The notes under the pieces were generated by a model. The model saw nothing but the letters and a program-made list of their open reading frames with translations. It ran no database searches and was not told the origin of the DNA. A stretch of DNA of 64,000 nt, taken from assembly GCA_052325505.1 (NCBI GenBank), contig JBKQUS010000133.1, positions 1,807 to 65,806 on the forward strand, in the 5' to 3' direction. The position numbers were made by a program, and so were the translations under genes. The stretch's first letter is position 1. The number at the start of each line of letters is the position of its first letter. This DNA comes from Limisphaerales bacterium (GTDB lineage: Bacteria > Verrucomicrobiota > Verrucomicrobiia > Limisphaerales > Palsa-1400). Shown here in pieces: positions 9,239 to 49,857 of this stretch.

Positions 9239-9367
9239 ATGAGTGTGGCAGCATCACGCGTCGTTTTGAAATTTCCGCGTTGCAGGAAGTTGAGGGTGGT
9301 AATAATTATACTTGACATTTAAGGTCCGCGCCGCGGGAAACCGGGCGGACTGGCATTTTTATTGGAC

Positions 9368-10237: not shown

Positions 10238-10268
10238 CGGCTGATGCTCCCGTAATTTCCCTTCCAAA

Positions 10269-12215: not shown

Positions 12216-12279
12216 TCTGTCAGCAGTCTGCCGTCCCGCGACTCATCCCACAACAATAAGGCGCGAAGATTATTACGGA

Positions 12280-12927
12280 TTATTGCGGATTATCCTGCAA
12301 CCAGGTGTCGATGGTGGAGGCCCATTGGTCCCAATTCGTGCCGTTATCTGCCTGGGTGAGAAGGCCGAGCAAATCCAGCGCCTGGTCCTTGAGGGGATGA
12401 GAGCTGTTGCTGGCGATGGCCAGCAGCATGGGAAGCTTGAGGGAATTACTGCGATTGAGCAGGTCGTTCATCAGCACGCCCGACACCTCGGGGGACGTGT
12501 CGGCATTGGTCAGCAATTCGGCCGCCCCGTCGTAATGGTCGTCCTGCACCATGTTGACCAGATGTTGCGCCAGCTCCTGCTGGGCCGCGGCGGGAGCGCG
12601 CGGGATTAAGGCCAGGATTTTGTCGGCCTTGCCGTTGTCATCGTCGTCGCCGAGAAGGATGTCATCAAGCTGTTGTTCCCAATCGGCGGCGCCCTGGTCG
12701 AGGTGGCGCGAGAACTTGACGTGCGCCGGTTCGCGCCCTGCGGGCGAAGTTTCCGGCGCAGGCTGGGCCGCCATCGGCGCGACCGCCAGCGGCGTGCTGA
12801 CTGGCGGAGGCGCGGCGACGGGCGTGACGTCCCCCCGCCGGCTGACCAGCCAGCCGATCAAAGTTCCCAAAACGGCCGCCAGCGCCAGCACCGCCAATGC
12901 CCGGAGCACCTTGTTTAAATTGCTCAT
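12280..12927 (-). CDS. Hypothetical membrane-anchored protein
   Basis: 215 aa with an N-terminal TM helix (LRALAVLALAAVLGTLIGWLV), a Pro/Ala-rich linker and an acidic helical C-terminal domain. I recognise no family. Confidence 0.5.
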   Translation of the reverse strand: MSNLNKVLRALAVLALAAVLGTLIGWLVSRRGDVTPVAAPPPVSTPLAVAPMAAQPAPETSPAGREPAHVKFSRHLDQGAADWEQQLDDILLGDDDDNGKADKILALIPRAPAAAQQELAQHLVNMVQDDHYDGAAELLTNADTSPEVSGVLMNDLLNRSNSLKLPMLLAIASNSSHPLKDQALDLLGLLTQADNGTNWDQWASTIDTWLQDNPQ

Positions 12928-22453: not shown

Positions 22454-22534
22454 CTGGGGGTCTCGTTCACATCGGTGTACCTCCCGCCAATCGTGCATAT
22501 TCCAGTAATAATGATAATTAGCAAATTAAATACA

Positions 22535-22556
22535 AAATTTGTCGCTTGACAAATTT
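22535..22556. promoter_or_regulatory. Inverted repeat containing a TTGACA box at the AT-rich left edge of the island
   Basis: The sequence is AAATTTGTC-GCTT-GACAAATTT, with 9-bp arms. It lies about 170 nt upstream of the Kelch gene start. A second 9-bp-arm hairpin (gtttgaatc...gattcaaac) follows at about 22572..22598. Confidence 0.3.
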
Positions 22557-22724
22557 CTAACTTAGTGTTGGAGTTTGAATCGCTGTGAAGGATTCAAACA
22601 CAACGAGTCGTAGCAGTGCAATCCGGGCTTCAAACGATGGGGTTCGAGTTTCAAAACCCCTTCTCAACGGCAGTGGCCGCATTTGTCCCCCTCCCCGCAA
22701 AACTGCAAACCAAAAGGTGATTCA

Positions 22725-25700
22725 ATGAAAACTCGTCCAGGAAATGTTGTTCAATTCGCACTGGCGCTGTCCGCGCTGGCAATCAACTCATGTGTCATTC
22801 AGTCGGTGCATGCCGTCAATTTCACCGGCACCGGCTCGGTGAGCTCCGCGCGCTGGGGTCAAACCGTCACCTTGCTCAACAACGGGAAGGTGCTGGTCGT
22901 GGGAGGTTCCGGCAGCAGCGGCGTTCTTTGCGAAGCGGAGCTTTACGATCCGGCCACTGGAACATGGACACCCACCAGTTCGCCGAACGCAGCGCGCATG
23001 AATCACACGGCGACCTTGCTCCCCAACGGGAAGGTAATGGTTGCCGGGGGCACAGATGGCAGCAGCGTTCTTTCCAGCACGGAACTGTATGATCCAACCG
23101 ATGGTTCGTGGACGACGGTCGACGGTCTGAACACCGCGCGCTGTTATCACACGGCAACCTTGCTGGGCAATGGCGAGGTGCTGGTCACGGGAGGCGAGGA
23201 CATCAGCGGAAACTCCAGCACCAAGTGCGAGTTGTACGATCCAGCCACCGGGTATTGGACGGTGTCGAAGGGCAATCATCTGCTCAGCGCGCGCTATATG
23301 CACACGGCGACGTTACTGCCCGATGGAAGGGTGCTGGTCGCGGGAGGCTTTAGCACACCCAACACGATACTTTCCAGTGCCGAGCTTTACACTCCGGGCG
23401 GCAGTGGTTTGTTATGGTTGCCGGCCAGCGACATGGGCGCCGCACGCGATGGTCACACGGCAACGTTGTTGCCCAATGGGACCGTGCTGGTTGCAGGGGG
23501 CCTTGGCCCCGGCGTTCTTAATAGTTCGGAGTATTACACTCCGGACAGTGGAGAGGGAACGTGGACGGTGACCGGCTCGTTGAACCAAGGACGTTGTGCC
23601 AGCACGGCGGCATTGCTGCCCAACGGGACTGTGCTGGTGACGGGAGGGTCGATCTACGAGGGGGTTCTCGAAGAAAGTCTTTCCAGCGCTGAACTATACG
23701 ATCCGAACAACAACGGTGGCACATGGACGACAACCGGCTCGCTCAACAACTCACGCTCCCATCACACGGCGACCTTGCTGGCAAACGGACAGATGCTGGT
23801 CGTGGGGGGCTACGAACCCACCCTTTTCGGCGGCCCCGTCCCTCTGTCCAGCACGGAACTGTATGATCCGTCCGAACCGATGTGGTGGACGACCGGTGTT
23901 GGTGCGCTAAACCAAATGCGCGCCAGCCAGACGGCGACGTTGCTGCCCATTGGGATGGTGCTGGTCGCCGGGGGCCTTGGCCCCACCGGCTGGCTGCCCA
24001 ACGCGGAGTCATATAATCCGGCCACGTGGACTTGGACAGTGACCGGCTCGCTGCACACCGCACGCTCCGGTCACACGGCGACCTTGCTGGCAAACGGAAA
24101 GGTGCTGGTGGTGGGAGGCATGAACAGCAGCGGCTATCTGCCAACCCATTATGGCGTGGAGCAGTACAATACGGACGACGGGACATGGGCGGTGCCACCC
24201 GCCAGTTGCAATCTCTGCCACCCCGCATCCGCACCGTTCCCGGCAGCTTTGGACAGCCGCCCGACAGGCCACCTGCATGTTGAACGCTCTCAGCACACAG
24301 CGACGCTGCTGAGCAATGGGAAGGTGCTGGTCGCCGGAGGTCAAACCGGCAGCAGCCTTGCCAATGCCACAGAGCTGTACGATCCGGCCACGGGGTTTTG
24401 GTCGCTATGGCCGCTGACAGCCAGAAGTTGCACCACCTGCCACACCGCCCCGCCTTCGGATGCCAGTGACAAACCGGCAGGCCACCTGCACACCCCTCGC
24501 TATGGTCACACGGCCACATTGATGCCCGACGGAACGGTGCTGGTCACGGGTGGCAAAAACGCCAACGGCTACTTAATGAATACTGAACCCGATGCAGGCC
24601 CCGGTTCAGGGCCCGGCATAGGCTTGGAGGTTAGCGTGGAGCAGTACGATCCCGTTACCGGGACGTGGGCGCCACCCAAGGACTGCGAAGACTGTCACAG
24701 GAATGGTTTGGTACCAGGACATTATGGCCACCTCGGCACCAGCGGTCGCAGTGATCACACGGCAACGTTGCTGCCCAATGGCGAAGTGCTCGCCGCGGGG
24801 GGCGAGGAGAACGGCATCGCTTCGTCCAGCTCAATGTTGTACTTCCCAGCCTTGCGGGAGTGGAGGAACACAACCAATATGGCCACCGGTGACATTACCT
24901 ATATGGTCACCGCACGTTATGATCACAAGGCGACCTTGCTGGCCAATGGGAAGGTTCTGGTGACGGGAGGGTATGATTCCAACGGCGACCCTGTCAACAA
25001 CGCGGAATTGTTCGACCCGGCCAGCGGGACGTGGACGGCCACCAGTCCGCTGACCACCGCACGCGGGGATCACACGGCGACGTTGCTGCCCAACGGGAAT
25101 GTGCTGGCCGCAGGTGGATTTGACAGCCTCGGCGATCCTCTTTCCAGTGCGGAAGTTTATAACGTTGGATTGGGTTTCTCAAACGTCTGGCAACCGCAGC
25201 TCGACCCGTTTGCCTCGGAACTCGCTTTGGGCGGCAACTTGACGATCAGCGGCTCCGGCTTTCGGGGCATCTCCGAAGGTTCGTGCGGCAACTCTCAGGC
25301 CTCGCCGGGGGATGTCCCGGTGGTGCAACTCCTCAGTCTGGCCAACGAGCAGACTTTGTTCCTGCTGCCCGATCCGGACACCGCCTGGTCGGACACGTCT
25401 TTCACTTCCGGGATCGTGACTGGATTCCCGCCCGGCTACGCGCTCGTGACGGTGTTCGTCAATGGCATTCCCAGCGTGCCCGCCTCGGACCCGCTGTTGC
25501 CCCTCATCGACATCCCAGGCAAGGGGAACATTCTCGACGTCAGTGTTCCGGTTCCGACCGCATCCACTCTGACGAATCTCACAACACTCGGCGACGGTTC
25601 GTACCAATTCGCCTTCACCAACACTGTTGGAGCGTTGTTCGGCGTGCTGGCCACCACGAATCTGGCGCTGCCGATGACCAACTGGACAGTCCTGGGCGGC

Positions 25701-25790
25701 GTCGCGGAAGTCTCGCTGGGCCAGTTCCAGTTCATTGATGCGCAAGCGGCGCTTTACCCGCAGCGATTTTACTGCGTGTACTCGCCGTAA
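22725..25790 (+). CDS. Secreted multi-blade Kelch-repeat protein with three CxxCH-containing blades and a C-terminal W...FY module
   Basis: The ATG at 22725 is preceded by aaggtga and gives signal peptide MKTRPGNVVQFALALSALAINSCVIQSVHA. There are about 17 repeats of the HTATLLPNGKVLVAGG + ELYDP..G.W type. The track start at 22683 is a TTG. Confidence 0.85.
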   Translation: MKTRPGNVVQFALALSALAINSCVIQSVHAVNFTGTGSVSSARWGQTVTLLNNGKVLVVGGSGSSGVLCEAELYDPATGTWTPTSSPNAARMNHTATLLPNGKVMVAGGTDGSSVLSSTELYDPTDGSWTTVDGLNTARCYHTATLLGNGEVLVTGGEDISGNSSTKCELYDPATGYWTVSKGNHLLSARYMHTATLLPDGRVLVAGGFSTPNTILSSAELYTPGGSGLLWLPASDMGAARDGHTATLLPNGTVLVAGGLGPGVLNSSEYYTPDSGEGTWTVTGSLNQGRCASTAALLPNGTVLVTGGSIYEGVLEESLSSAELYDPNNNGGTWTTTGSLNNSRSHHTATLLANGQMLVVGGYEPTLFGGPVPLSSTELYDPSEPMWWTTGVGALNQMRASQTATLLPIGMVLVAGGLGPTGWLPNAESYNPATWTWTVTGSLHTARSGHTATLLANGKVLVVGGMNSSGYLPTHYGVEQYNTDDGTWAVPPASCNLCHPASAPFPAALDSRPTGHLHVERSQHTATLLSNGKVLVAGGQTGSSLANATELYDPATGFWSLWPLTARSCTTCHTAPPSDASDKPAGHLHTPRYGHTATLMPDGTVLVTGGKNANGYLMNTEPDAGPGSGPGIGLEVSVEQYDPVTGTWAPPKDCEDCHRNGLVPGHYGHLGTSGRSDHTATLLPNGEVLAAGGEENGIASSSSMLYFPALREWRNTTNMATGDITYMVTARYDHKATLLANGKVLVTGGYDSNGDPVNNAELFDPASGTWTATSPLTTARGDHTATLLPNGNVLAAGGFDSLGDPLSSAEVYNVGLGFSNVWQPQLDPFASELALGGNLTISGSGFRGISEGSCGNSQASPGDVPVVQLLSLANEQTLFLLPDPDTAWSDTSFTSGIVTGFPPGYALVTVFVNGIPSVPASDPLLPLIDIPGKGNILDVSVPVPTASTLTNLTTLGDGSYQFAFTNTVGALFGVLATTNLALPMTNWTVLGGVAEVSLGQFQFIDAQAALYPQRFYCVYSP

Positions 25791-25894
25791 TCGCAGGCAG
25801 TTTTCCGGTTGAATCAATTCCTCACCCGGATGCATGGACAAATTGATTGGTCGAACAGGAAAGCAATGACAACGAACAAAATCTAAAATGTCTT

Positions 25895-26989
25895 ATGAAA
25901 ACACAATTCCTCCATCTATTCATGTTGCTGGCGGTGTTTGCCGGCATTCATCCCGCTCTGGCGCAAACAACCAATTTGAATATTGCGGCGGCGGGCAACC
26001 AAGTCGTTCTATTCTGGTCGGTCACGGACACGAATTACGTTCTGCTGAGCACCACCAATCTTGACTCCACAAACTGGGTGCCGGTCTGTAATGCCGTCCC
26101 GGTCACCGCCGTCACCGTCACCAACCTCCCAGCCACAATCTTTTTCCGTTTGGTCGCCACTACGGCCGGCATGGCGTTCGTTTGCGGGGGGCAGTTCACG
26201 ATGGGGGACACTTTGGATGGCGAGATGGATGCCATCCCCATCAGCGTAACGGTGACGGGATTCTACATGGAAACGAACCTGGTGAGCTACAGTCTGTGGC
26301 AGTCGGTCTATAATTGGGCCACGAACAACGGATATGGCTTCGACACCGCCGGTATGGGCAAGGCGTCGAACCATCCCGTGCAGTACGTGGATTGGTATGA
26401 CGCGGTGAAGTGGTGCAATGCGCGGTCGCAGCTCGCGGGTTTGACTCCGGTATATTACACGGACGCTGGTTTGACGCAGGTTTATGAGGGTTTTGCGGAC
26501 GTGGATGCTGTTTATGCCAACTGGTCGGCCAATGGCTACCGATTGCCGACGGAAGCGGAGTGGGAGAAGGCGGCTCGCGGCGGGCTGGACGGGAAACGGT
26601 TTCCGTGGGGCAATACCATCTCTGAAAGCCAGGCCAACTACTACGGAGACACCACCCTTGGCTACGATTTTGGACCGAACAGCTACAACGCAGCTTTTAC
26701 AAACGGAGCGATGCCTTATACGAGCCCGGTGGGGTCATTCGCACCAAACGGATATGGACTTTACGACATGGCTGGAAATGTACTGGAGTGGTGTTGGGAT
26801 TGGGATGGCACGCCTTACGGCCAGCCATCCACCAGTAATCCGACAGGACCGGCAACTGGAGACAACCGAGTGTTGCGCGGCGGCTCTTGGATGCACCGTG
26901 CCAACCTCGCGACGTGCGCCTATCGCTGGAGCTACAATCCGTATAATTGGGACGATTATGCCGGATTTCGTTGTGTGAGGACATATTAG
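25895..26989 (+). CDS. Formylglycine-generating-enzyme (SUMF1/FGE-sulfatase) domain protein, secreted
   Basis: The ATG at 25895 gives signal peptide MKTQFLHLFMLLAVFAGIHPALA. An N-terminal W...FFRL module is followed by FGE-domain motifs: GGQFTMGD, NHPVQYVDWYDAVKWCNA, GYRLPTEAEWEKAARGG, YDMAGNVLEWCWDW and RVLRGGSW. Confidence 0.85.
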   Translation: MKTQFLHLFMLLAVFAGIHPALAQTTNLNIAAAGNQVVLFWSVTDTNYVLLSTTNLDSTNWVPVCNAVPVTAVTVTNLPATIFFRLVATTAGMAFVCGGQFTMGDTLDGEMDAIPISVTVTGFYMETNLVSYSLWQSVYNWATNNGYGFDTAGMGKASNHPVQYVDWYDAVKWCNARSQLAGLTPVYYTDAGLTQVYEGFADVDAVYANWSANGYRLPTEAEWEKAARGGLDGKRFPWGNTISESQANYYGDTTLGYDFGPNSYNAAFTNGAMPYTSPVGSFAPNGYGLYDMAGNVLEWCWDWDGTPYGQPSTSNPTGPATGDNRVLRGGSWMHRANLATCAYRWSYNPYNWDDYAGFRCVRTY

Positions 26990-27081
26990 TTTTGTTCGTT
27001 TGCCCGGTAACCCCTTTGAACTTGTGGGCTTAACCGCCACTGCAATGCGTCTTCCACGCCACTTCGGACGGCTCGCTTCCA

Positions 27082-28801
27082 TCACGGGTTTGTCTGCATC
27101 AAGCGGTAGAAACGGCTTGAATTGGTGAGAGGCACCGGGTCGCTCCATATTTGGGTTGAGTTCGTCAAGGTCACGCTGCCCGCGGTCTGCCACTGGTTGC
27201 TGGTGTTCAGGCCTGAAACACTTTGAATCTGGTAGGTCCATCCCATCGAGCCGTAAATGGTGAACGAGACAGTCTGGCCGGAAAGGACGGGCGACTGGAT
27301 CTGGGGGGGGCGTTGTCTGCACCAAGCGGTAGAAGCGGCTTGAATTGGTGAACGGCACCGGGTCGGTCCATACCTGAGTCGAATTCGTCAAGGTCACGCA
27401 GTCCACTGTTTGCCAGTGGTTGCTGGTATTCAGGCTCGAGACACTTTGGATCTGGCACGAGTATCCGATCGAGCAGCAAATCGTGAACGAGACAGTCCGG
27501 CTGGAAAGGACGGGCCATTTGATCTGGGGGGGTGGATTGAGTCCGCTGAGGAAGAATGTGTTCGGCACTGGATTGAAATTATAGTTGTAGTCCATGCTGG
27601 TGGTGCCGCCCGTGACAAACAATCGGCCGTCCCTCAAGAGCGTCGTGGCCACGCTGCCGGGATAGTAGTTGGATATCGTCAACGGATCGGAAAGGGCGAG
27701 CGTCTCGCCGGTGGCCAGGTCCGCCTGATACACCCGGAAAGTGGCGTCGGCGCCTCCATCCGGGCTTGCCCCGGCCAGCATCAACACGCGGTTGTTGGCC
27801 GCATCCACCACGGGTGGCCAAACCGCCAGATTGTTCCAAAACACCGGCGTCAAGGCCAGCTTCGAGAATTGCTTGCTCGCCGGGTCGAAAAACGCCAGCG
27901 CGTACTCAGTGTTCGTGTTGACCGTTTCCCACATAAGGAACACGTAGCGGCCGTCGCTGGTTTTGAACCGTCCGACGTCCTCGCCATACTCCACGCCTCC
28001 GTAAACCCAGTTCGGCTCCCCGGCAATCGCGCACGCCGCCAGGACTGTGAAGGTGTTGCTGCCCGGATCGTAAAGCTCGATGGACGGGATGTTGGAGCTG
28101 CCGTAAATGTCCGTGCCGCCCACCACCACGGCTTTGCCATCCGACGTCGGGAATACCAAAGGCAACGACCGCGGGCTGTTCAGCGCGCCGGTTGCGGCAA
28201 AGGCTTTGTTGGACGGGGTGTAAATCTCGCCGTACGTGCCACTGCTGTAATCATACCATCCGCCGACGATCAGCACACTGCCTCCGGTCAACTGCGCGCC
28301 CTTGCAGCGCATCCGGGGAAGGTTCATCGTGGTGCCGGTGGACGCGACAGTTGCGCTCGTCGGACTCAACAGTTGCGCGGAAGCATAACCGGGCGCAACT
28401 CCCCAATCGGCGGCCCCTCCCGCCATCAAGTAAGTGCCGTCGGCCAGGGGGATCAGCGCGCCCATGTCATAGACAAAGGGCAGGCTCTGATTGACACAAC
28501 TGTTGTTCGCCAGCGTCCACAGATCCATGGAGTTGAGCGCGGAAAACCCCGTCCCGTGCCCGCCAAGCAGCGCCACTCTGCTATCCGGCAACTGGACAAT
28601 GTAGTGCCCCATGCGGGCCACGCTCATCACCGGCCCTGGCTCAAGGATGGCCCCGTTCCCGATAGCGCTACCGGCGACACCCAGCCAGCATGCCGCCGCC
28701 AGAATCAGGCCCAGCCGTCTTCGGCGACGACCCGGGGCCAATCGAATGTCTGCTGCGTGGGGTTCAACCTCAAGTTGTTGAATAAAGGGCTTGGTAGTCA
28801 T
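27082..28801 (-). pseudogene. Kelch-like beta-propeller secreted protein; frame broken at a C8 (plus-strand G8) tract between two tandem C-terminal modules
   Basis: The as-assembled ORF is 26735..28801. After the first FYRLVQ module the translation becomes low-complexity and overlaps the convergent FGE gene by 255 nt. Removing one C from the tract at 27303..27310 gives a second in-frame module (...SSRFYRLMQTNP) and a TGA at 27082..27084. The N-terminus has RRRRRLGLILAAACWLGVAGSA. Confidence 0.7.
27088..27532 (-). repeat. Tandem duplication of a 215-nt coding unit, each copy preceded on the coding strand by a poly-C tract (C7, then C8)
   Basis: Copy A is 27311..27525 and is preceded by the C7 tract at 27526..27532. 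Copy B is 27088..27302 and is preceded by the C8 tract at 27303..27310. The copies are roughly 80 percent identical by eye. A C7-plus-unit length of 222 nt is in frame; with C8 it is 223 nt. Confidence 0.85.
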
Positions 28802-28943
28802 GCATAGAGAATATCAAACGCCACTTCATTGTCAATCAGAAATGGTAATTATCACAAACTTTAAGATGAGATTTGCTTCTCTATGATTTTACGTAAGTGC
28901 TTGCAAATCAACGCTGCAAAGGTGGCAATACAGTTCAACACCC

Positions 28944-29088
28944 GACCAGGGAATTCTTCATGCCGCGATATCCAGAGCGCGACGAAGCCATCCGCCGCGA
29001 ACCGCGCCCGCCGTACGCTTGGTACGGCGTCGGCAAAGTCCGCCCCTTCGGCGCAATGGAAAAAACCATCGCCGAAGGAGTCTATTAG
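28944..29088 (+). pseudogene. Orphan relic of the ligase-like gene 3' end (copy 2 of the 145-bp repeat)
   Basis: It translates to TREFFMPRYPERDEAIRREPRPPYAWYGVGKVRPFGAMEKTIAEGVY*. The end of the intact gene reads TREFFMPRFLERDEAIRREPRPPYAWDGVAEVRPFGAMEKTIVEGVY*. Weak similarity continues about 20 nt further upstream and then stops. Confidence 0.85.
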
Positions 29089-43350: not shown

Positions 43351-44484
43351 ATGACGAAGAAGCAACTGCAGGACATCGCCCGCAAAGAGGGCACACCGGT
43401 GGTGGTGATCGATCACAACGTCGTTCGCGCCAACTATAAATCGTTCCACCGGCACATGCCCCGGGTCCAGGCCTACTACGCCGTCAAGGCGAACCCCGAC
43501 CCGGCCATCGTCCGCAGCCTCTACAAGATCGGAGCGAGCTTCGACGTGGCCTCGCTGGCGGAATTCAGGCTGGTGTACGAGAACATCAAGGGGCTGCCCG
43601 CCAGAGAGCAGCAGGATTTCATCTGGGACAAAATCATTTACGCCAATCCCACCAAGCCGCGCGAAACCCTGGAGGCCCTCGATCAATACAAGCCGCTGGT
43701 CACTTTCGACAACCTCAACGAATTGAAGAAAATCAAGCGGTTCGCCCCGCACGCCGGCGTCGTCCTGCGCGTGCGCGTGCCCAACACCGGCTCAGTCGTC
43801 GAACTGTCCTCCAAATTCGGGGCCGACCCCAGCGAGGCCGTGACACTGATTCAGGCGGCCTTCGACCTTGGACTGGTGGTGGAGGGACTGAGCTTCCATG
43901 TCGGCAGCCAGTGCATGAATTTCGAGAACTTCGTCCAGGCGCTGAACATCTCGGCCAGCGTGATGCAGGAATCCGAGGCGCGCGGCCACAAGATCAAGAT
44001 CCTCGACATCGGCGGCGGCTTCCCCGCCCCCTACCATCGCGACGTCGAATCCATTCAGGTCCTCGCCCGGAAAATCAACGCCGAGATTCACCGCCTTTTT
44101 TCCAAGGACACTGAGATCATCGCCGAACCGGGCCGGTTCGTGGTTGCCTCCGCGGCGGTTTCCATTGCCAAGATCATCGGCAAAGCCCGCCGCGACGGCA
44201 AGACTTGCTACTACATTGACGACGGGGTTTACTCCACCTTTTCCGGCATCATCTTCGATCATTGCCAGTACCATCTCAAAGCCTTCAAGCGGGGCCAGCC
44301 CGAAATCTGCGCCGTCTTCGGCCAGACCTGCGACGCCTTGGACACCATCTCCCTCTCCGAGGATTTGCCCGATTTGGAATTGGACGACCTGCTTTATTGC
44401 GAAGCGATTGGGGCCTACAGCAACGCCTCCGCCACCTGGTTCAACGGCTTCGCCCCCGCCAAAGTCGTTCACGTGAACGAGTAA
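43351..44484 (+). CDS. PLP-dependent ornithine/lysine/arginine decarboxylase (Orn/DAP/Arg decarboxylase family 2)
   Basis: 377 aa. The YAVKANPDPAIVRSLYKIGASFDVAS motif carries the PLP lysine. Also present are DIGGGFP and a C-terminal GAYS motif. It starts 4 nt after the DHS-like gene. Confidence 0.85.
   Translation: MTKKQLQDIARKEGTPVVVIDHNVVRANYKSFHRHMPRVQAYYAVKANPDPAIVRSLYKIGASFDVASLAEFRLVYENIKGLPAREQQDFIWDKIIYANPTKPRETLEALDQYKPLVTFDNLNELKKIKRFAPHAGVVLRVRVPNTGSVVELSSKFGADPSEAVTLIQAAFDLGLVVEGLSFHVGSQCMNFENFVQALNISASVMQESEARGHKIKILDIGGGFPAPYHRDVESIQVLARKINAEIHRLFSKDTEIIAEPGRFVVASAAVSIAKIIGKARRDGKTCYYIDDGVYSTFSGIIFDHCQYHLKAFKRGQPEICAVFGQTCDALDTISLSEDLPDLELDDLLYCEAIGAYSNASATWFNGFAPAKVVHVNE
44418..44484 (+). 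repeat. Copy 1 of a 67-bp direct repeat (last 22 codons plus stop of the decarboxylase gene)
   Basis: Identical to 45247..45313 except for 2 positions (C/G and C/G). Confidence 0.9.
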
Positions 44485-44630
44485 CGGCAATCTCGGCGTT
44501 TTCCATTGAATCGCAGTCTCGCTCTCGCTATAACACGGGGCATGGCACAACGCAACGAGTCGGCGTACACCGTGGCCGTGAAGGTAATTCAGATTTTCGA
44601 CAACGAAAGGACCAAAACAGTGAAGGTCAA

Positions 44631-44954
44631 ATGAGCAACAGGCGCAACATCCTGTTTAATGTCCGCACGCCACTCGGTTTCGCTGTGCGCGTGACACGGG
44701 AGTACTGGGCGATCATTACCACCGTCAAACATCCCGTGATGGCAGGGTGTGAAGCGGAGGTGCAGGCAGTGCTGGAAAGCCCGGAAGAAATTAGGCGTAG
44801 CAAAAATGACGCCACGGTGTATCTTTTCTATCGCAGCCGCCGCACACGGCGTTGGGTGTGCGCCGTAAGCAAACAAGAGGGCCAATCCGGCTTCCTCATT
44901 ACGGCGTACGTGACTGACGCCATCAAAGAAGGCGAAAGAATATGGCCGAAGTGA
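44631..44954 (+). CDS. Small hypothetical protein, toxin-like partner of the DUF2283-like gene
   Basis: 107 aa from the ATG at 44631, preceded by gaagg. It overlaps the next gene by 13 nt. The sequence is MSNRRNILFNVRTPLGFAVRVTREYWAIITTVKHPVM...FLITAYVTDAIKEGERIW. I cannot name the family with confidence. Confidence 0.5.
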   Translation: MSNRRNILFNVRTPLGFAVRVTREYWAIITTVKHPVMAGCEAEVQAVLESPEEIRRSKNDATVYLFYRSRRTRRWVCAVSKQEGQSGFLITAYVTDAIKEGERIWPK

Positions 44955-45166
44955 ATGTTTATTATGACCCGATGGGGCGCACGTTGACCGTTTGGTTCGG
45001 CCGGCCGCAGGCGGAGTGCGTCTGTGAAGAAACGGGCGAAGAAGTGGTGTTGATGAAGGACCACAAAGGCCGCGTCATCGGCTTCGAGCGGTTGAATTAT
45101 CCGGCCACAGGCAAAGCCGCCCAGCCGGTCCGAATGGCCTTCGAAACTCTGGCCCAAACGGATTGA
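44942..45166 (+). CDS. DUF2283-like small protein (antitoxin-like)
   Basis: 74 aa. MAEVNVYYDPMGRTLTVWFG...EVVLMKDHKGRVIGFERL matches the DUF2283 pattern (YD.e.D.l.i.f......dG.i.Gie.l). Confidence 0.65.
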   Translation: MAEVNVYYDPMGRTLTVWFGRPQAECVCEETGEEVVLMKDHKGRVIGFERLNYPATGKAAQPVRMAFETLAQTD

Positions 45167-45246
45167 TGCTTTGATCCTACGCAAAAGCCAGGCCGACACG
45201 CCCCAGATCGGGCTTCTGAAAGCCCGCGTTCCCGACTTGGCCGTTG

Positions 45247-45313
45247 CAGCAACGCCTCCGCCACCTGGTTCAACGGCTTCGCCCCGGCCAAAGTGGTTCA
45301 CGTGAACGAGTAA
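45247..45313 (+). repeat. Copy 2 of the 67-bp repeat (orphan decarboxylase 3' end)
   Basis: It is not preceded by the rest of the gene. It ends with the same TAA. Confidence 0.9.
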
Positions 45314-45556
45314 GTATTTGCCGCAGGGAAAATGTGGAATGACGAAGTCGTAATGATCAATAAAGATCCGAAATGACGATTTGGCAGATGCAGGATTCCA
45401 AGACCCTAAAATTCTCGAAAAAGCCATAAAATCCTTTCCACCCATTGAAGCATAACATATTGGCTTGCAATGTGTTGTATCGCACAAAAGTTTTTCGCTT
45501 TTTGCGGTTTCCTCGGTCGGAATACTCGCCACGGATGCAGATTCGCTGCGCCCGAC

Positions 45557-45620
45557 CAATTGTCAATTATCCATTGTCAACTATTAATTGTAAAAGTCCA
45601 TTGGCCATTTTCATTGCCCA
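45557..45620 (+). repeat. Five phased ATTG-core repeats (period 13-14 bp)
   Basis: The units are CAATTGTCAATTAT, CCATTGTCAACTAT, TAATTGTAAAAGT, CCATTGGCCATTT and TCATTGCCCAACA. ATTG occurs at 45559, 45573, 45587, 45600 and 45613. The array is about 130 nt upstream of the lipoprotein gene. Confidence 0.6.
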
Positions 45621-45746
45621 ACAGAGCCGCAACATGTTTCAGGTTTCAGTTGGTTCGCCAAATTGAAGAGTTCTTGGCATACCAAGATGCTTCTCCATAA
45701 TCCACGGTGGGGTTTTACCCCATAGCGGCCGCAAGGTTTTCAGGTG

Positions 45747-46208
45747 ATGCTTCCGGCCATGAAAAATAATAAAAAATTGCTCATCACGTTCCTCTCTGCC
45801 GCCACGTTCGCGGTGGGATGCAACAAGGAACAAACCGCCTCGCAGCAGATCGACAAGGTTCAAACCGAAACGAAACAGGCCGCGCAGGACATGAAAGATT
45901 ACAGCTTCGCAGAGAAGGCTGAATTCGTCAAAACCATGCAGGCTCAGTTGACCGCCCTGGATCAGGATCTGGATAAACTCTCGGCCAAAATTGACAGCTC
46001 CAGCGACGCCATCAAGGCTGAAGCCAAGCCAAAGCTGCAAGCGTTGCGCGATCAAGCCGCGAAGTTGAATCAGCAGCTTGCCGACGCCCAGAACGCCACC
46101 GAGTCTACTTGGGACAACGTGAAGGCCGATTCAAAAAGAGCTTACGCCGCGTTGGAGAACAGTTTCATGGACGCCCGCCAGTGGGTGAGTGACAAAATCG
46201 CTCCTTGA
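45747..46208 (+). CDS. Coiled-coil lipoprotein, hypothetical
   Basis: It has a lipobox LSAATFAVGC after a basic N-terminus. The rest is Q/K/A/D-rich helical sequence. AAGG lies about 10 nt upstream of the ATG at 45747. Confidence 0.6.
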   Translation: MLPAMKNNKKLLITFLSAATFAVGCNKEQTASQQIDKVQTETKQAAQDMKDYSFAEKAEFVKTMQAQLTALDQDLDKLSAKIDSSSDAIKAEAKPKLQALRDQAAKLNQQLADAQNATESTWDNVKADSKRAYAALENSFMDARQWVSDKIAP

Positions 46209-46885
46209 ACTGCTTCCCGCAAAAGCTGCCTGCATGCCAAACCGCTGCGCAGCGGCACTTTGCCGTTACGTTGGCGGCAAATAAAACGAAAAACATCAAA
46301 CAGCAATGCCCTTCGGAGGTGGAAAGTGAAGTCGCGCGCTGTTGAATCGACTTTGTTCGCGATCCACGCCACTCATGATTGACAGTGGATTGCCAAAGCA
46401 CACGGTGCGTGAACCAGCAGTGAGTAATAGCAGGAGGCTGTCGTTGCGGAGGCTGTCGGCTTACGCGGGGGCATCCATTGTTGCGCTCTTCCTCGTCCTC
46501 GCGATGCTCATTTTTGTGTTTGGTGGTACGATGCTTGATAGCTACGGCAAAAGTGCGGCTGCCCGGGCATTATCCCACTTAGCAGCGGAAAGGCCGAATC
46601 CCCGGGGCAAATTCCATATCTTGACCTGCTCTCCAAGCACGTCAGAGAGACTGCGCCGCTGCTTCCCGATGCCGTGGGGGAATTTCAGGGGCGCCCGGTC
46701 ATGTATTTCCTTGATGCTTGCGGCGGCGATCCGGATGCTAGCGAGCGGTTAGAGCTTCAGCAGCGATTGGCAAATCGCGGAGACCAACGCACCGAGGCCG
46801 AGAAACAGCAGCGAGGCTTTGTGAACGGGAGTCTGGGAGACGCAGTTGACCGCGCTCGCTTCGATGGGGTCTCCCAGAGCGATGG

Positions 46886-47422
46886 TTGCTCGTTGCGCAT
46901 GCTGCAGTAGCGGCAGCGTTTATCATCATCCGAAAGCAGGGATTCGACCTGCGAAACGCAGGGGAAAACGCAATTACCAACCAGTTGGAAGGCGTTCTGA
47001 GAAATGACTTGCTCAATCGCGGAACCGTGGAAGGATTCGACAGACGGTTTTTCGGCCCGGTCACTCGTGGGAGCGAAGTGGAGAACTACAACGGTGAGAA
47101 GATCAGCAAGAAGCCCGACTTGGTGTTCCATCTTCAGCGTGAGAATGCACTTTGGGACCAAAGACAGGACGCGATCTTTGCGGAATGCAAACCCGTGGAC
47201 CGAGACCACTCGCTTTCGGCAAACTACTGCGCGGTCGGGACAGACCGAGTGGGCGTGGAGCGGTTTGTCATCGGCGACTATGCCTGGGCTATCCACATTG
47301 CGCCCATCCAAGTCTTTGCCGTCCAAGACCTGAAATTAGGAAACGGGAGCCAATTCCTTCGGCCCTTCTTTGCTGGCTTGCCGCTATTTGTTCAGGATGG
47401 CTTTTCAGCGAGAAGTTTCTGA
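46886..47422 (+). pseudogene. Possible degraded PD-(D/E)xK nuclease-like gene
   Basis: There is no ATG start, and the frame is closed upstream by a TGA at 46847..46849. The fragment contains KKPDLVFHL...DAIFAECKPVD, a D...E.K pattern. Neighbouring frames (46342..46752, 46674..46910) carry protein-like pieces, which suggests frameshift decay. Confidence 0.3.
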
Positions 47423-47940
47423 ACGACCTCCTCCACATGATGAGGCTGAAGTCCAATTGCGCGAACAATTCCTTTGCGATCCACCACAGCATAGGTGGGA
47501 TAGTAGTGAACATGCCAGGCCTGCTGTGCCGCGAGCGAGACATCACGAGCAGTTGGATATTGAATGCCCCTCTCTTGCACTGTTTGACCCATGTTTTCCT
47601 GGCCACGTTTTGAAGTGCAAACCCCGACGATGACCAAACCTTTTGCTTTGTATTTCTGCAGAAGTTCGTTGTTGTGTGGGATGGCATTCATGCACGGACC
47701 ACACCACGTCGCATAAAAATCCACCACCACGACTTTTCCCTTCATGTCTTGAGCTTTCACCTCGCCGTTGATCCAGCCCGTCAGCTTCAGGGATGGCATG
47801 ACTTTGCCCTCCAGCGCGACATGTTCGGCCCGTAATTCGGGCTTATTATCCCAAGTCCAAGAATCAGGAAATTCACTGGCTTGGAGGGTGAGGGCCAAAA
47901 CCAAGAACGAACCGCCAATACATAGACGCTTTTTTGACAT
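47392..47940 (-). CDS. TlpA/ResA-like thiol:disulfide oxidoreductase (thioredoxin fold), secreted
   Basis: It has signal peptide MSKKRLCIGGSFLVLALTLQA and the active site FYATWCGPC. Confidence 0.85.
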   Translation of the reverse strand: MSKKRLCIGGSFLVLALTLQASEFPDSWTWDNKPELRAEHVALEGKVMPSLKLTGWINGEVKAQDMKGKVVVVDFYATWCGPCMNAIPHNNELLQKYKAKGLVIVGVCTSKRGQENMGQTVQERGIQYPTARDVSLAAQQAWHVHYYPTYAVVDRKGIVRAIGLQPHHVEEVVQKLLAEKPS

Positions 47941-48466
47941 GATTTTAGAATTCCACATGGGCGAAAGCCTGTCAAGCCAACAAATCTGCCTCTAAACCCG
48001 CCAACCTCTCTTCTTGGCGTCTTGGCGTGAGAAAAACGGGCCCTTGCCAATAAACATACTTGACAATACGCCCCCCGACACCCGTTTTCATCAATATTTA
48101 CAGGGGTTTCGTGTTATTAAAAATATATGTCACCGTGACGTGTACACTTTTCTCCATTTATGCCATAATTAAAGGAAAAGTCTGAATTATGAATGAAAAA
48201 TTAAGAACTCCCGCCGTCGCAGGGGGCAGGCAGCATGACGGGTTGGCGCTCATAATCATGAAATCTCCGAATTCAAATTTTAGATTCTCCTGTAACGGCG
48301 TTGGCACGACAGGTCGGCAGTCGGAAAACCGCCGCGGACATAATTTCTCGCCAAAATCGCGCCGGGGAATCCGGGAATTCTCACTTTTCTCGGATACTGG
48401 GCTTTTGGCCACTTTTCGGCTGGAACCTGCTGCCGTGCAAACCATTCCAACTGAAACAGGCCTGTG

Positions 48467-48517
48467 GATTTCTCGGATTTATCGAGAATTTCTCGGGGGG
48501 TGGTATACCGGGGGGGG
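48467..48517 (+). repeat. Intergenic element copy 1: three tandem ATTTCTCG-type decamers followed by G6-T-GGTATACC-G8
   Basis: The sequence is gATTTCTCGGATTTATCGAGAATTTCTCGGGGGGTGGTATACCGGGGGGGG. A second copy in the same orientation lies at 56956..57005. Confidence 0.75.
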
Positions 48518-48771
48518 CTAATCCTAATCTTGATCGTAATCTTAATCCCAGCCAAAGATATTTGAAATTTGGGCGTCGCGGCACTCCGCCCACCCGGGAG
48601 GGGCGAGCGCCGCGAGCCCCTGAATATCTGAGAGATTATTTGACGACATTTTCACGCTTAGAATCTAAACAGGAACTCCTTACAAAACAACCAACAGTTG
48701 AGCCGGTCATACCACTCAAAGCGAATCAAAGTGATTTTAATATTATCCTTTGTCCATTATCCTGCTCCATT

Positions 48772-49857
48772 ATGACTGGGAAAAAATCCACGACTTCAGG
48801 CACTCCGGCCTCCCTCGGATTTGCCATGCCCGCCGAATGGGAGCGGCACGAAGCCACTTGGCTGGGCTGGCCGCACAACCCCACCGACTGGCCCCGCAAA
48901 GTCAGCACCATCCGCTGGGTTTATGGCGAAATGGTCCGCAAAATCAACCCGGGCGAAATCGTCCGGCTGTTTGTCAATTCCAAGACCGACGAAACCGCCG
49001 CCCGCCGCACTCTGACCCAGGCCCACGCCGATGTCTCCCGCGTCGAATTCATCATCCACCCGACCAACCGCGGCTGGACCCGCGACAGCGGGCCGATCTG
49101 TGTCCGGCGCAGCGGAGATAATCCGGAAACCGCGTTTGTTCATTTTCATTTCAATGCCTGGGCCAAATACCCGGATTGGCAGAAAGACCGCAAGGTGCCT
49201 GAAATTGCGGCCAAACGCCTGGGCAAGCGACTGTTCAACGCCGAGTACCAGGGCCGGGATTTTGTCATCGAAGGCGGCGCCATCGATGTCAATGGCCGGG
49301 GCACTCTTCTCACGACCGAGGAGTGCCTGCTGGATCGAAGAACCCAAGTGCGCAATCCCGGTCTGGGTCGGGAGGAAATCGAATTGGTGCTCCGGAACTA
49401 TCTTGGCGTCACGAATGTGCTCTGGCTGGGAGGCGGGGTGGTGGGCGACGATACCCACGGCCATGTCGATGACATCTGCCGGTTTGTCAACCCGACCACC
49501 GTGGTGCTGGCGCAGGAGGGCAATCCCAAGGACATCAATTACAAGCCGCTGGCCGAGAACCGGGAACGCCTGGAGGGCATGCGCCTGGAAGACGGCTCAA
49601 AAATCCAGGTGGTGGCGCTGCCCATGCCCGCGCCGATTTTTTACGACGGCTATCGTTTGCCGGCCAGCTACGCCAATTTTTACATCAGCAACGCCGCGGT
49701 TATTGTGCCCACCTTCAACGATCCAAATGACCGCATCGCCCTGGGCATCGTGGGCGATTTGTTCCGCGACCGGCCGGTGGTGGGGATTCACGCGGTGGAT
49801 TTGGTGCTGGGCTTCGGCACGCTCCATTGCCTGAGTCAACAACAGCCGGCCATTTGA
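48772..49857 (+). CDS. aguA: Agmatine deiminase
   Basis: The ATG at 48772 gives MTGKKSTTSGTPASLGFAMPAEWERHEATWLGWPHN. Later motifs are GGAIDVNGRGTLLTTEECLL, GDDTHGHVDD and ASYANFYISN, ending with GTLHCLSQQQP and its catalytic Cys. The track start at 48301 is a TTG far upstream in AT-rich repeat DNA. Confidence 0.9.
   Translation: MTGKKSTTSGTPASLGFAMPAEWERHEATWLGWPHNPTDWPRKVSTIRWVYGEMVRKINPGEIVRLFVNSKTDETAARRTLTQAHADVSRVEFIIHPTNRGWTRDSGPICVRRSGDNPETAFVHFHFNAWAKYPDWQKDRKVPEIAAKRLGKRLFNAEYQGRDFVIEGGAIDVNGRGTLLTTEECLLDRRTQVRNPGLGREEIELVLRNYLGVTNVLWLGGGVVGDDTHGHVDDICRFVNPTTVVLAQEGNPKDINYKPLAENRERLEGMRLEDGSKIQVVALPMPAPIFYDGYRLPASYANFYISNAAVIVPTFNDPNDRIALGIVGDLFRDRPVVGIHAVDLVLGFGTLHCLSQQQPAI

Follow-up and report, generated by a model that had tools for sequence, protein, structure and literature searches.

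The 762 bp that lie directly behind the ornithine/DAP/arginine decarboxylase (ODC) gene of a peat-soil Verrucomicrobiota bacterium are the stump of a decayed Type III restriction-modification (R-M) operon, flanked on both sides by a copy of the host gene's own 3′ end. We favor, at a probability of roughly 55%, a reading in which this R-M relic arrived by a recombinase-free long target duplication, generated through a homology-anchored, one-ended exchange. The locus resides within a stretch of 64,000 nt, here called the window, to which all positions refer.

The target gene (43351..44484, plus strand) encodes an intact protein of 377 amino acids (Pfam PF02784, 2.9e-55; PF00278, 1e-15) that is 93-96% identical to its orthologs in 10 related MAGs, where a deoxyhypusine-synthase-like gene is always located upstream. 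A repeat search recovers the 3′ end of this gene as a direct repeat of 67 nt (44418-44484 and 45247-45313, both on the plus strand) with 65/67 identical positions, which confirms the repetition with two mismatches described in an earlier note on this DNA. The repeat forms one family of two copies, the only two within the window, spaced 829 nt from start to start with 762 bp between them. It extends from the third base of codon 356 to the TAA stop codon and comprises the last 22 ODC codons plus the stop. Copy A (44418..44484) is the functional end of ODC and copy B (45247..45313) a displaced, untranslated one. Both mismatches fall at third-codon, synonymous positions, and comparison with the 10 relatives assigns one private change to each copy, a synonymous GTG>GTC in copy A and CCC>CCG in copy B. 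The stop is TAA in both copies, compared with TAG in 8/10, TAA in 1/10 and TGA in 1/10 of the relatives, and the TAA common to the copies is a derived state. The repeated segment is the host's own ODC 3′ end: each of 80 related species has a single copy, and a second is present in 0/80. Long direct repeats are also infrequent by chance, as 9/380 random control positions (2.4%) have one of at least 40 nt, the threshold applied, within 1.5 kb on each side.

The objection that the duplication is an assembly artifact was checked in assemblies and in reads. The two-copy arrangement is also present in L001 (ENA ERZ25039544) and L002 (GCA_052915985.1), giving three assemblies with the integrated form. 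L001 is an independent assembly, since it differs from the window locus by a 1-nt indel, and one assembly (Flye-style contig name, 1-nt indel) may be long-read based. In four sequencing runs (X1-X4), the Logan unitigs break, as expected, at the 39-nt block that is common to copies A and B, where coverage is roughly double that of the adjoining DNA (23.7 vs 10.6/9.2/7.6 in X1 and 46.7 vs 17/24.9/19.5 in X2); the depth of the cassette equals that of the flanks in both X1 and X2. A joint that skips the cassette was looked for in the Logan contigs of X1-X4, and none was seen. A fifth run, X5, does contain a mismatch-free Logan contig (376 nt, depth 4.9) that joins 44417 to 45247 and so skips 829 nt. 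This contig would fit a tandem arrangement that is unreal in the cell, being either an artifact or an empty site accompanied by an 829-bp circle, whose combined 31-mer content is the same as that of the integrated form. The polymorphism check rests on Logan contigs, and such de Bruijn contigs cannot separate the integrated form from circle plus empty site because the 39-nt block exceeds k = 31. However, the cassette depth in X5 (5.7-8.6, at low coverage) is equal to or above that of the flanks (~5), and a mis-join after the loss of weak edges is the simpler reading of that joint. Together with the three assemblies and the roughly doubled block depth, which speak for a real duplication, this makes an unreal tandem the least probable of all the readings considered here.

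What had been described as a defined 762-bp cassette is instead the remnant of a Type III R-M operon, consisting of a mod leader, an in-frame mod stub, an intact DUF4258-like/DUF2283 gene pair and a start-less res stub. The two overlapping small genes that the segment was said to carry are both found, but they are not its only content, as a third ORF of 30 codons (44542-44634) had been missed. The former leader or promoter region of mod (44485..44541, plus strand) is assigned by its position and by weak sequence homology to the DNA upstream of the mod stubs in two other loci containing the same pair (L085 and L090). The hexamers TTGAAT-17-TATAAC are visible there by eye; they fail the criterion of the promoter tool because the last base of the -10 hexamer is not T, and a promoter function of the leader is plausible.

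The 30-codon ORF itself has no family match, and its identity as a stub of mod, the Type III DNA methyltransferase gene (44542..44634, plus strand), follows from matches to L085, L105/L106 and L090. It keeps the first 8 and the last 22 codons of mod in frame: positions 44541-44565 are 96% identical to the start of the L085 stub (E 1e-7), positions 44566-44585 are 90% identical to the 3′ end of the L105/L106 gene, and the contiguous alignment of the window with L105 and L090 begins at 44565/6. The stop of the stub overlaps the start of the following gene (ATGA). A full-length mod homolog is available in L088 (687 aa, MAER...TVKVK*; N6_N4_Mtase, 2.7e-41), and the C-terminal fragment in L105 matches plasmid genes annotated as site-specific DNA-methyltransferase (E 3e-19). 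The 70-aa mod stub of L085 finds no match on plasmids and is identified by aligning it with the N-terminus of L088.

At the opposite edge, 45167..45246 (plus strand) corresponds to approximately the first 25 codons of a Type III res gene (RKSQADTPQIGLLKARVPDLAV), in which the ATG is mutated to ATC and which ends at the junction with copy B. Positions 45180-45223 are 88.6% identical to the initial codons of the L087 gene (E 9e-10), an ORF directly following the pair that contains a ResIII domain (9.2e-17), and the N-terminus is as in L089 and L105. The gene order in L105/L106 is mod-pair-DUF488-res, and full-length R-M homologs flank the same pair in L088, L106 and L087; in other metagenomes the pair is thus found with a full-length mod on one side and a full-length res on the other. 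The window, L090 and L085 have each lost an internal part of mod, at a point that differs among the three, and the pair is intact everywhere. The window locus is a relic and not a functional Type III R-M system.

The intact pair consists of two genes on the plus strand that overlap by 13 nt. The first (44631..44954) encodes a DUF4258-like protein of 107 amino acids, a putative toxin of the RelE/ParE superfamily (BECR) as judged from the Pfam matches of its homologs and an AF2 model, and the second (44942..45166) encodes a 74-aa DUF2283 protein (PF10049, 6.4e-6; 26.7 bits vs a Pfam cut-off of 23) that is a putative antitoxin or partner. The antitoxin role of DUF2283 is known from annotation only. 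The 107-aa protein has 268 homologs, and 16/36 aligned members of its family match DUF4258 (PF14076, best E 2.7e-6), a BECR toxin family listed with target unknown and no references (PMC11980606), although the window protein itself has no Pfam match at E<0.1. Its model has a pLDDT of 92; in a Foldseek search of the PDB no match reaches significance (E at least 0.15), the weak top matches being RelE-like (Cami1, HigB2, BrnT). A sequence profile search of the PDB returned no match, and scanning it directly against Pfam, NCBIfam and PADLOC was uninformative; one weak PADLOC match, to a Type III methyltransferase model, has an E of 0.035. No relatives of the 107-aa protein were found on viral contigs in IMG/VR.

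Throughout L085-L108 the 74-aa gene is the immediate neighbor of the 107-aa gene, and the unit is kept in all loci with both ends. Like Type II toxin-antitoxin systems of the RelE/ParE (BECR) kind with DUF4258 (PMC11980606), the pair displays two small, overlapping, co-oriented genes, a toxin-side family that overlaps DUF4258, a predicted strand and helix order with weak structural neighbors of the RelE type, and an embedding in defence islands. It differs in its toxin-first gene order, in the window protein's own lack of a Pfam match, and in having a DUF2283 partner rather than an HTH or MqsA-type antitoxin; members of DUF4258 and DUF2283 are not known to have been characterized experimentally. 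The proposal that the two genes are toxin-antitoxin-like is supported by the DUF4258 matches among the relatives of the 107-aa protein and by its DUF2283 partner.

The R-M stump resides at the head of a larger, lineage-specific insertion (44485-48755, 4.27 kb) that splits ODC from aguA. An insertion at this point is borne out by the two nearest relatives, L003 and L005, in which the ODC stop is followed by ~25 nt and then aguA. The remaining 3.44 kb (45314..48755), absent from L003 and L005, contain small ORFs without family and a thioredoxin/AhpC-like gene (47392-47958, minus strand; gene calls and Pfam), at a GC content of 0.51 vs 0.60 in ODC. Homology to L003/L005 resumes at 48756/48772 with an aguA-like (PAD_porph) gene (48772..49857, plus strand; tblastx and blastn matches of 92-94% to L003 and L005), which is also supported by PF04371 on the identical locus L001. 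Copy B lies 0.8 kb into the 4.27-kb insertion and does not mark where the foreign DNA ends. The view of copy B as a displaced gene end holds insofar as it is the host gene's own 3′ end, but it adjoins lineage-specific insert and not ancestral DNA.

The cassette, the second copy and the 3.4-kb segment are absent from all 80 GTDB relatives, and the DNA to the right of copy B shows synteny with none of them. Neither a donor-type genome nor a clean empty site (cf. ODC-TAA-GTATTTGCC...) was found among the relatives; in the empty-site check called for earlier, the 80 relatives have a single copy at the end of ODC, and the right flank is non-syntenic. Exact-protein look-ups with ODC, the 107-aa protein, the thioredoxin-like protein and a 153-aa protein led back to just these two assemblies and a single Logan contig, and a 154-aa GTG-start version is not on record. 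A comparison of L099 and L101 as a pair with and without the insertion was discarded, as the two carry one context in differently rearranged form and an empty site is seen in neither. The expected absence of a recombinase gene was upheld, with no integrase or transposase family match among the ORFs tested in 44485-48755. No tRNA was found, the cassette ends lack terminal inverted repeats, and no structured RNA in the window has an Rfam match.

Similar architectures can be found elsewhere around the same pair. Flanking direct repeats of at least 40 nt are present in 6/22 of its independent contexts, vs 9/380 controls (Fisher p = 5e-5). These repeats, of 44-234 bp, are locally derived and unrelated to each other, the duplicated segments being the 3′ end of a PIN gene (L085), the 3′ end of kdpC (L092/L093), the C-terminus of a methyltransferase gene (L095), the 5′ end or interior of res (L087), and the 5′ end of a nucleotidyltransferase gene plus its promoter (L101). 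The long-repeat case that had been reported upstream in the window is also real, with 143 nt (22309-22451 vs 28944-29086) that are 87% identical and 6.5 kb apart. The architecture thus recurs, as had been suggested, twice in the window and in at least five other metagenomic contexts of the pair. No recombinase is present among the tested ORFs of this upstream case either (Kelch and FGE-sulfatase genes).

Recurrence of this kind would also be expected of a cassette with defined ends whose mobility depends on a site-specific recombinase that acts in trans (integrase-, Xer- or integron-like) and targets gene 3′ ends, with the element's attachment site carrying the gene-end copy. The rebuilt gene end with a distal displaced copy resembles integrase-borne islands, two such cases fall within 64 kb, and the same pair is repeat-flanked in other contexts. 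However, cargo that is up to 93% identical in nucleotide sequence is accompanied by unrelated repeats that possess no common core at the six loci (the longest words in common are no longer than in shuffled sequence, and any given 7-mer occurs in at most three of them), and the cargo boundaries differ at every locus. A site-specific recombinase is therefore unlikely, and the earlier note's trans-acting recombinase or gene-end-targeting unit is hard to reconcile with repeats of such varied lengths. The duplicated segments moreover include a 5′ end with its promoter (L101) and an internal portion of res (L087), the 67 nt are ordinary ODC coding sequence, and the lack of an integrase among the tested ORFs, of a tRNA, of terminal inverted repeats and of viral-contig relatives points in the same direction. 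On balance, we regard a recombinase of this type as very unlikely.

Established element classes fit the locus poorly for related reasons. Integrase-borne islands and prophages, which occupy the 3′ ends of tRNA, tmRNA and protein genes, share with it a duplicated 3′ end and a target that stays functional, but here there is no integrase among the tested ORFs, no constant att core and no constancy of the element ends, and the second copy is internal to the insertion; an integrative element was excluded on the first three of these grounds. An integron gene cassette was rejected because the repeat is ODC coding sequence, single-copy in relatives. The only palindrome within the repeat (GTTCACGTGAAC) is not conserved in L005, L009 and L011, and no intI was found among the ORFs tested, a subset of the window. 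A transposon or MITE was dismissed in view of the long and variable duplications and the absence of terminal inverted repeats.

A known class that the locus does match is that of R-M units inserted with long target duplication (Nobusato et al., 2000, Gene 259:99; Furuta, Abe and Kobayashi, 2010, NAR, PMC2853133). The published cases involve R-M types I-IV, lack mobility genes, and have target duplications that are unique and measure from 30 to more than 400 bp; many of these repeats extend across a start or stop codon, and orphan M and partial M and R genes as well as Type III systems are included (PMC2853133). Furuta et al. (2010) asked for R and M homologs, an insert <20 kb, a direct repeat >30 bp, a single copy in the empty site of a relative, and neither a linked mobility gene nor a multi-copy repeat. 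In the window, the insert is 762 bp and the repeat 67 bp (65/67), no linked mobility gene is present among the tested ORFs and the repeat is not multi-copy, while R and M are present only as stubs, of ~25 start-less codons for res and 30 codons for mod. The locus further resembles the class in that the cargo is R-M-derived, the repeat is genome-unique, single-copy in relatives and slightly diverged between copies, and it spans the stop codon of a neighbor that stays intact. It departs from the class in that only the DUF4258-like/DUF2283 pair is intact, in its host, a Verrucomicrobiota MAG, and in having no clean empty site. The phenomenon, described before for R-M units (PMC2853133), is not specific to this lineage, in contrast to what was previously proposed. 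The recurrence of the same small pair with different long repeats in several metagenomic contexts has apparently not been reported before. The authors of the 2010 study suspected double-strand breakage, and no experiment has so far demonstrated how long target duplication comes about (PMC2853133).

In the homology-anchored exchange that we favor, close strains carrying different accessory DNA directly behind ODC would have recombined, with the last conserved stretch, the ODC 3′ end, serving as homology anchor or single-crossover site. The other side would have been closed by an illegitimate joint between res codon ~25 and ODC codon 356, leaving the resident ODC 3′ end behind as copy B. In an equivalent route, a repeat-bounded circle would re-integrate by a Campbell-type crossover. 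Selection for an intact ODC would then preserve copy A and leave copy B to drift, while later deletions would have taken mod and res but never the pair. One-sided anchoring of foreign DNA is familiar from natural transformation studies as Campbell-type insertion-duplication and homology-facilitated illegitimate recombination, processes that have been shown in the laboratory with selectable markers. As in those processes, a short homology provided by a conserved gene end would lie on one side and an illegitimate joint on the other, the homologous segment occurs twice, flanking or adjoining foreign DNA, and the repeat identity would stop where inter-strain homology stops; the difference is that here the process is deduced from junction anatomy alone.

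The main competitor is a true target-site duplication, in which the R-M DNA would have been taken up at a double-strand break whose ends were staggered by 67 nt, arising from opposite-strand nicks that possibly resulted from restriction attack, followed by fill-in and ligation to give two initially identical ODC ends. The window repeat is compatible with this, as it is with the exchange, each copy being exactly one substitution from the inferred ancestor with TAA in both, and the locally unique repeats of 44-234 nt are as in the published cases (PMC2853133). Repeat differences in L085, L092, L095 and L101 are evenly spread over codon positions ([6,6,9] summed), and this lack of bias fits an in-situ duplication as well. 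In the 143-nt case, an overall third-position bias (13/20, p = 0.004) resolves, when polarized with relatives, into even changes in copy B ([2,4,4] by codon position) and constrained ones in copy A ([0,1,5]), consistent with neutral decay of the former, a pattern that also agrees with the drift of copy B in the favored reading. A foreign-allele origin of that copy B was thereby ruled out, the bias stemming from the functional copy A.

Two features argue against a staggered cut. The identity between copies A and B stops exactly at the ODC stop codon, which is also the point where post-ODC sequence diverges from relatives, and in the 143-nt case identity ends at stop +1 while copy B matches relatives to stop +3. 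In both window cases, then, the right repeat edge coincides to the nucleotide with the stop codon and an older synteny breakpoint, a coincidence that would be unexpected for a random second nick because ~430 nt of non-coding DNA are available to the right. Moreover, in L095, L087 and L092/L093 the alignment of the high-identity repeats runs on, in register, into flanks that are homologous yet far more diverged (LTPEEIQIVEGNA* vs LSKDEIKNVEDGGR*, MPRKKKDNTDQPS vs MPRKNQADAAQIG, and DGK* vs DGLAGK*), as expected if the copies come from two alleles; fill-in duplication cannot produce such tails. For these reasons we infer that homology-anchored exchange is the better of the two explanations, and consider the staggered-cut duplication unlikely, with perhaps one chance in a few. 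The favored exchange has its own difficulties. The allele argument is weak at the window locus, since only two substitutions separate the ODC copies, and the 67-nt anchor, with its 39-nt identical block, is short for a RecA-dependent crossover, near the lower limit. The route also requires that two insertions arose independently in sister strains at one and the same nucleotide behind ODC, which is plausible only because the ODC-aguA spacer is ~25 nt.

The persistence of the pair through these deletions may reflect a putative addictive (post-segregational) property, by which segment loss through repeat-repeat recombination would likewise be disfavored. Because the promoter, the start codon and the ATGA-coupled end are all preserved in the mod stub, the mod promoter probably continues to drive expression of the pair. 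Conceivably, the pair, alone or with R-M partners, could act as the core of a mobile addiction unit that works without a recombinase and promotes its own insertion, with long target duplications, beside gene ends, and it may do so via breaks and repair provoked at the integration site or via repeat-bounded circles re-entering by homology. We view this as improbable; if it were true, the recurrent long local repeats would be a property of the module itself.

Long target duplication is a route by which R-M genes have been known for 25 years to spread without transposase or integrase, and the present locus offers a compact comparative handle on it, as a pair of ~0.6 kb occurs with different target-derived repeats whose junctions can be read per base. 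For annotation, the lesson is that the 30-codon and 44-codon ORFs at the cassette edges are gene stubs and not new genes. If the homology-anchored reading is correct, many of the duplicated gene ends seen beside accessory DNA in MAGs would be footprints of ordinary inter-strain recombination and not signs of new recombinases. Finally, mod and res have decayed in three lineages while the toxin-antitoxin-like pair stays with the mod promoter and a translationally coupled stub, which makes the locus a testable case of an addiction module that may have outlasted its carrier defence system.

The 3′ end of the Orn/DAP/Arg decarboxylase gene (ODC; 43351..44484, + strand) occurs twice in the window as a direct repeat of 67 nt, at 44418-44484 and 45247-45313, with 65 of the 67 positions identical and 762 bp between the copies; self-comparison of the window reproduces the coordinates and the two mismatches reported in the earlier note. 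The gene-attached copy (copy A) begins at the third base of codon 356 and closes with the TAA stop. The gene product is a PLP-dependent decarboxylase of 377 aa (PF02784, 2.9e-55; PF00278, 1e-15), and the gene itself is preceded by a deoxyhypusine-synthase-like gene. Both differences from the displaced copy (copy B) are synonymous changes at third-codon positions. The same two-copy layout is present in two further records of this locus, L001 (ENA) and L002 (GCA_052915985.1), the former being an independent assembly because a 1-nt indel sets it apart. In Logan unitigs from four soil and peat runs, a 39-nt block common to the two copies is found at about twice the flank depth, with the cassette at flank depth. 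A second copy of the species' own ODC end was found in none of 80 related species, and of 380 random control positions only 2.4% have a direct repeat of 40 nt or longer within 1.5 kb. The duplication is thus confirmed as real, neither artefact nor chance. Two gene-call oddities in L001, a 1-nt insertion that cuts the DUF2283 call to a 54-aa ORF (7592-7817) and an aguA call that extends 160 nt into the following gene (11476-12726), are probably long-read homopolymer errors rather than biology.

A single-copy form of the locus appears in one metagenome run, X5, in which a 376-nt Logan contig joins position 44417 to 45247 with no mismatches, carries the copy-B variants and skips 829 nt, equal to one repeat unit plus the cassette. 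Here the 39-nt shared block exceeds the k of 31, coverage is low (about 5x) and the cassette has the depth of its flanks, so that a low-coverage de Bruijn mis-join is at least as likely as a real empty or excised allele.

Between the two copies, the earlier note had described just two small genes. Both are present, a 107-aa ORF (44631-44954) and a 74-aa ORF (44942-45166), but there is also a third ORF of 30 codons (44542-44634), whose end overlaps the start of the 107-aa gene as ATGA and whose origin is seen when the cassette is aligned with 16 related loci. The leader and the first 8 codons of this third ORF correspond to the starts of ORFs in the metagenome loci L085 and L090 (25 nt at 96%); these ORFs themselves match a 687-aa gene of L088 at its N-terminus (MAER...LVWEGKYDSAGNRVAPLRVALPFQTVETVNES). 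The last 22 codons correspond to the end of the gene represented by this L088 copy (…YTVVVKVIDILGNDTTKTV.VKVK, then stop), as seen in L088, L105, L106 and L090. The L088 gene is an N6_N4 DNA methylase (2.7e-41), and the L105 fragment matches plasmid genes annotated as site-specific DNA-methyltransferase. On the other side, the 80 bp past the DUF2283 stop (45167-45246) correspond to the first ~25 codons of the gene 3′ of the pair in L087, L089 and L105 (88.6% over 44 nt, E 9e-10), with the ATG changed to ATC in the window; in L087 this gene encodes a Type III restriction subunit (ResIII, 9.2e-17). Because the third ORF matches the ends of a Type III methyltransferase gene (mod) and the 3′-most segment matches the start of a restriction-subunit gene (res), the “cassette” is, to judge from these alignments, the stump left by a Type III restriction-modification (R-M) operon, comprising a mod leader, a mod stub, the pair of small genes and a res stub.

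The label “toxin-antitoxin-like”, which had been attached to this pair, appears reasonable from its relatives. The 74-aa protein matches DUF2283 (26.7 bits against a cut-off of 23). Direct family searches with the 107-aa protein itself gave no match; it is DUF4258-like through its homologues, a family of at least 268 proteins in which 16 of 36 aligned members match DUF4258, a domain catalogued with the RelE/ParE-superfamily BECR toxins, target unknown (PMC11980606). The AF2 model of the protein is confident (pLDDT 92), and its structural neighbours are RelE-like (Cami1, HigB2, BrnT), with weak, non-significant similarity.

A scan of JGI metagenome contigs yielded 38 loci that encode proteins related to the 107-aa one. 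At the nucleotide level, similarity to the window (75-93%) spans the pair and at most ~65 nt to its left and ~60 nt to its right, and never includes ODC. Elsewhere, intact mod and res genes of Type III R-M operons flank the pair, with the arrangements mod followed by the pair (L106, 228-2713), mod, a 172-aa gene and then the pair (L088, 1317-4321), the pair followed by res (L087, 645-3098) and pair-DUF488-res (L105, 3-2568). The internal deletions of mod in the window, in L090 and in L085 fall at three different points, and all three have left in place its promoter region, start codon and coupled 3′ end. Since mod and res have been almost wholly deleted independently in three lineages while every locus with both ends has the pair intact, the pair is most simply explained as one that would be costly to lose (addiction) and was retained for this reason, an explanation that leans on the family assignment; such addiction would also counter-select deletion through recombination between the repeats. 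In another clade of the pair, its ATG shares bases with the stop of other genes of defence type: in L095 that of a methyltransferase C-terminus, in L101 that of a nucleotidyltransferase fragment. Rather than standing free as a toxin-antitoxin module, the pair may belong to defence systems as an accessory.

The stump is the leading part of a larger insertion. In L003 and L005, the two nearest relatives with readable flanks (ODC 96% aa), an aguA-like gene follows the ODC stop after only ~25 nt, and its counterpart in the window lies at 48772-49857; segment 44485-48755 is therefore, by this comparison, a lineage-specific insertion of 4.27 kb, in agreement with the insertion behind ODC proposed earlier. 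Its first 762 bp are the R-M stump and the next 67 bp copy B, and the rest contains small unassigned ORFs and a thioredoxin-like gene; GC content is 0.60 in ODC, lower in the stump (0.56) and lowest in the remainder (0.51). The insertion splits what in L003 and L005 is a tight DS-ODC-aguA polyamine gene cluster. In other close relatives, ODC is followed by unrelated genes, for a GH31 hydrolase, for an outer-membrane efflux protein, for an amidohydrolase or, in L009, for a DNA methylase ~1.1 kb downstream, so this position is a variable spot in the group, and no relative offers a clean empty site for the 829-bp step. At the far end, the last 14 nt of the insertion (48742-48755, ATTATCCTTTGTCC) are a near-duplicate of the first 13 nt of resumed synteny (48756-48768, ATTATCCTGCTCC), just before the aguA ATG, which could be a short duplication or a microhomology footprint of the 3.4-kb insertion. 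Just past copy B, a 44-nt piece (45326-45369) that occurs once in the window and in none of the other loci fetched has counterparts (3 mismatches) in other contigs from runs X1-X3, where both flanks differ, and may be a short dispersed repeat of this genome or community. In L025, a more distant relative, a partial second ODC-like frame lies directly upstream of ODC (1393-2310 and 2367-3497; two tblastn segments, ~77%).

At other loci, a direct repeat of at least 40 nt brackets the same pair in 6 of 22 independent testable contexts, compared with 9 of 380 control positions (Fisher p = 5e-5). The repeats all differ, and each is locally derived: 104 nt of a PIN-domain gene 3′ end, to stop +1 (L085/L086); 62 nt at the 3′ end of kdpC, which like the target gene in the window is a housekeeping gene, with the cassette in reversed orientation (L092/L093); 140 nt from the C-terminal part of a methyltransferase-like gene (L095-L098); 44 nt of the res 5′ end (L087); and 234 nt of the promoter and 5′ end of a nucleotidyltransferase gene (L101). 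The sixth, L120, has a hairpin-containing repeat of 78 nt in three copies around an incomplete toxin gene (3256-3333, 3903-3980 and 4944-5021; 97-99% identical, 650-1040 nt apart), a layout that resembles a small cassette array or REP/terminator-type repeat, unlike the locally derived gene-end repeats, and is possibly a different thing. In L085, the gene-attached PIN-end copy (1803-1905) has a 1-nt deletion that frameshifts the C-terminus and the displaced copy (2804-2907) stays in frame (…ELVTGDPEFKALAQEIKIVWLR, then stop), the reverse of the situation in the window.

These comparisons argue against a transposon-like unit and against the site-specific recombinase or cassette-like mobile unit that the earlier note had proposed. 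As the note had stated, there is no recombinase gene at the cassette, among the ORFs tested; neither inverted ends nor constant repeat lengths or cargo ends are seen, the boundaries of the bracketed segment vary at every locus, and no common core was found among the bracketing repeats. The insertion, the toxin-antitoxin-like content and the recurring architecture of that proposal stand, and its mechanism is unlikely, recombinase and artefact each keeping only a sliver of probability.

The recurrence is illustrated by an older case of the same architecture upstream. There, a PaaK-like gene for an adenylate-forming enzyme (21386-22453) has its 3′ end repeated over 143 nt at 87% identity (22309-22451 and 28944-29086), bracketing 6.5 kb (insert 22454-28943) that contain a 1035-aa Kelch-repeat gene, an FGE-sulfatase-domain gene and a further Kelch-like ORF, and no recombinase among the ORFs tested. 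Seven relative contigs (L123-L129) have a single copy of this end, followed by a convergent aminotransferase gene (4-nt overlap) and clpX-clpP, which are absent from the window downstream of the displaced copy; that copy retains the ancestral TAG and three more ancestral bases before diverging. Polarised changes by codon position are [2,4,4] in the displaced copy, showing neutral decay, and [0,1,5] in the gene-attached copy, showing constraint. This case supports recurrence of a process, not of a particular element. Other repeats in the window include a 220-nt tandem duplication (27090-27309 and 27313-27532, 84% identical) in the Kelch-like ORF region of the insert, and a 71-nt element (5727-5797 and 9128-9198, 70% identical) framed in both copies by TAA...TTTTAT; the latter, which has no Rfam match, lies ~85-160 nt downstream from the stop codons of two successive genes on the minus strand (5881-9024, 9359-10330) and may be a shared regulatory or terminator-region motif.

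The ODC locus matches the “insertion with long target duplication” described by Kobayashi's group, in which R-M units, whatever their type, enter without mobility genes and lie between unique direct target duplications of 30 to over 400 bp. The duplications often cross a start or stop codon, which lets the neighbouring gene survive; those cases include partial M and R genes, and double-strand breakage was suspected (PMC2853133). The locus likewise combines R-M-derived cargo, no mobility gene among the ORFs tested and a unique, locally derived repeat. A staggered break with fill-in would leave two initially identical copies, as is consistent with the single private change in each window copy relative to the state common to ten relatives, with the TAA in both, with the even spread of repeat differences across codon positions at four other loci, and with the decay of the displaced 143-nt copy beside a constrained partner. 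It does not account for two further features, and we regard it as the less likely of two routes. In both window cases, identity between the copies stops at the stop codon (+0 and +1), the same point at which the lineage's downstream DNA no longer matches its relatives. Moreover, in L095, L087 and L092/L093 the high-identity repeat runs on in register into homologous, strongly diverged sequence (LTPEEIQIVEGNA-stop versus LSKDEIKNVEDGGR-stop; MPRKKKDNTDQPS versus MPRKNQADAAQIG; DGK-stop versus DGLAGK-stop), and the copies at these loci are, as their sequences read, alleles rather than fill-in products. Because of these two features, a homology-anchored route is more likely, in which a single crossover or one-ended anchoring in a conserved gene end would be combined with an illegitimate joint; this would explain both. 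If the exchange partners were very close strains, the anchored route would also fit the private changes, the codon-position spread and the 143-nt decay. For the whole explanation, each step of which we infer, we estimate a probability of roughly 0.55.

The locus thus adds to the known long-target-duplication class an example from a new phylum whose cargo has decayed, and its value lies in the comparative series that it provides around one small module.
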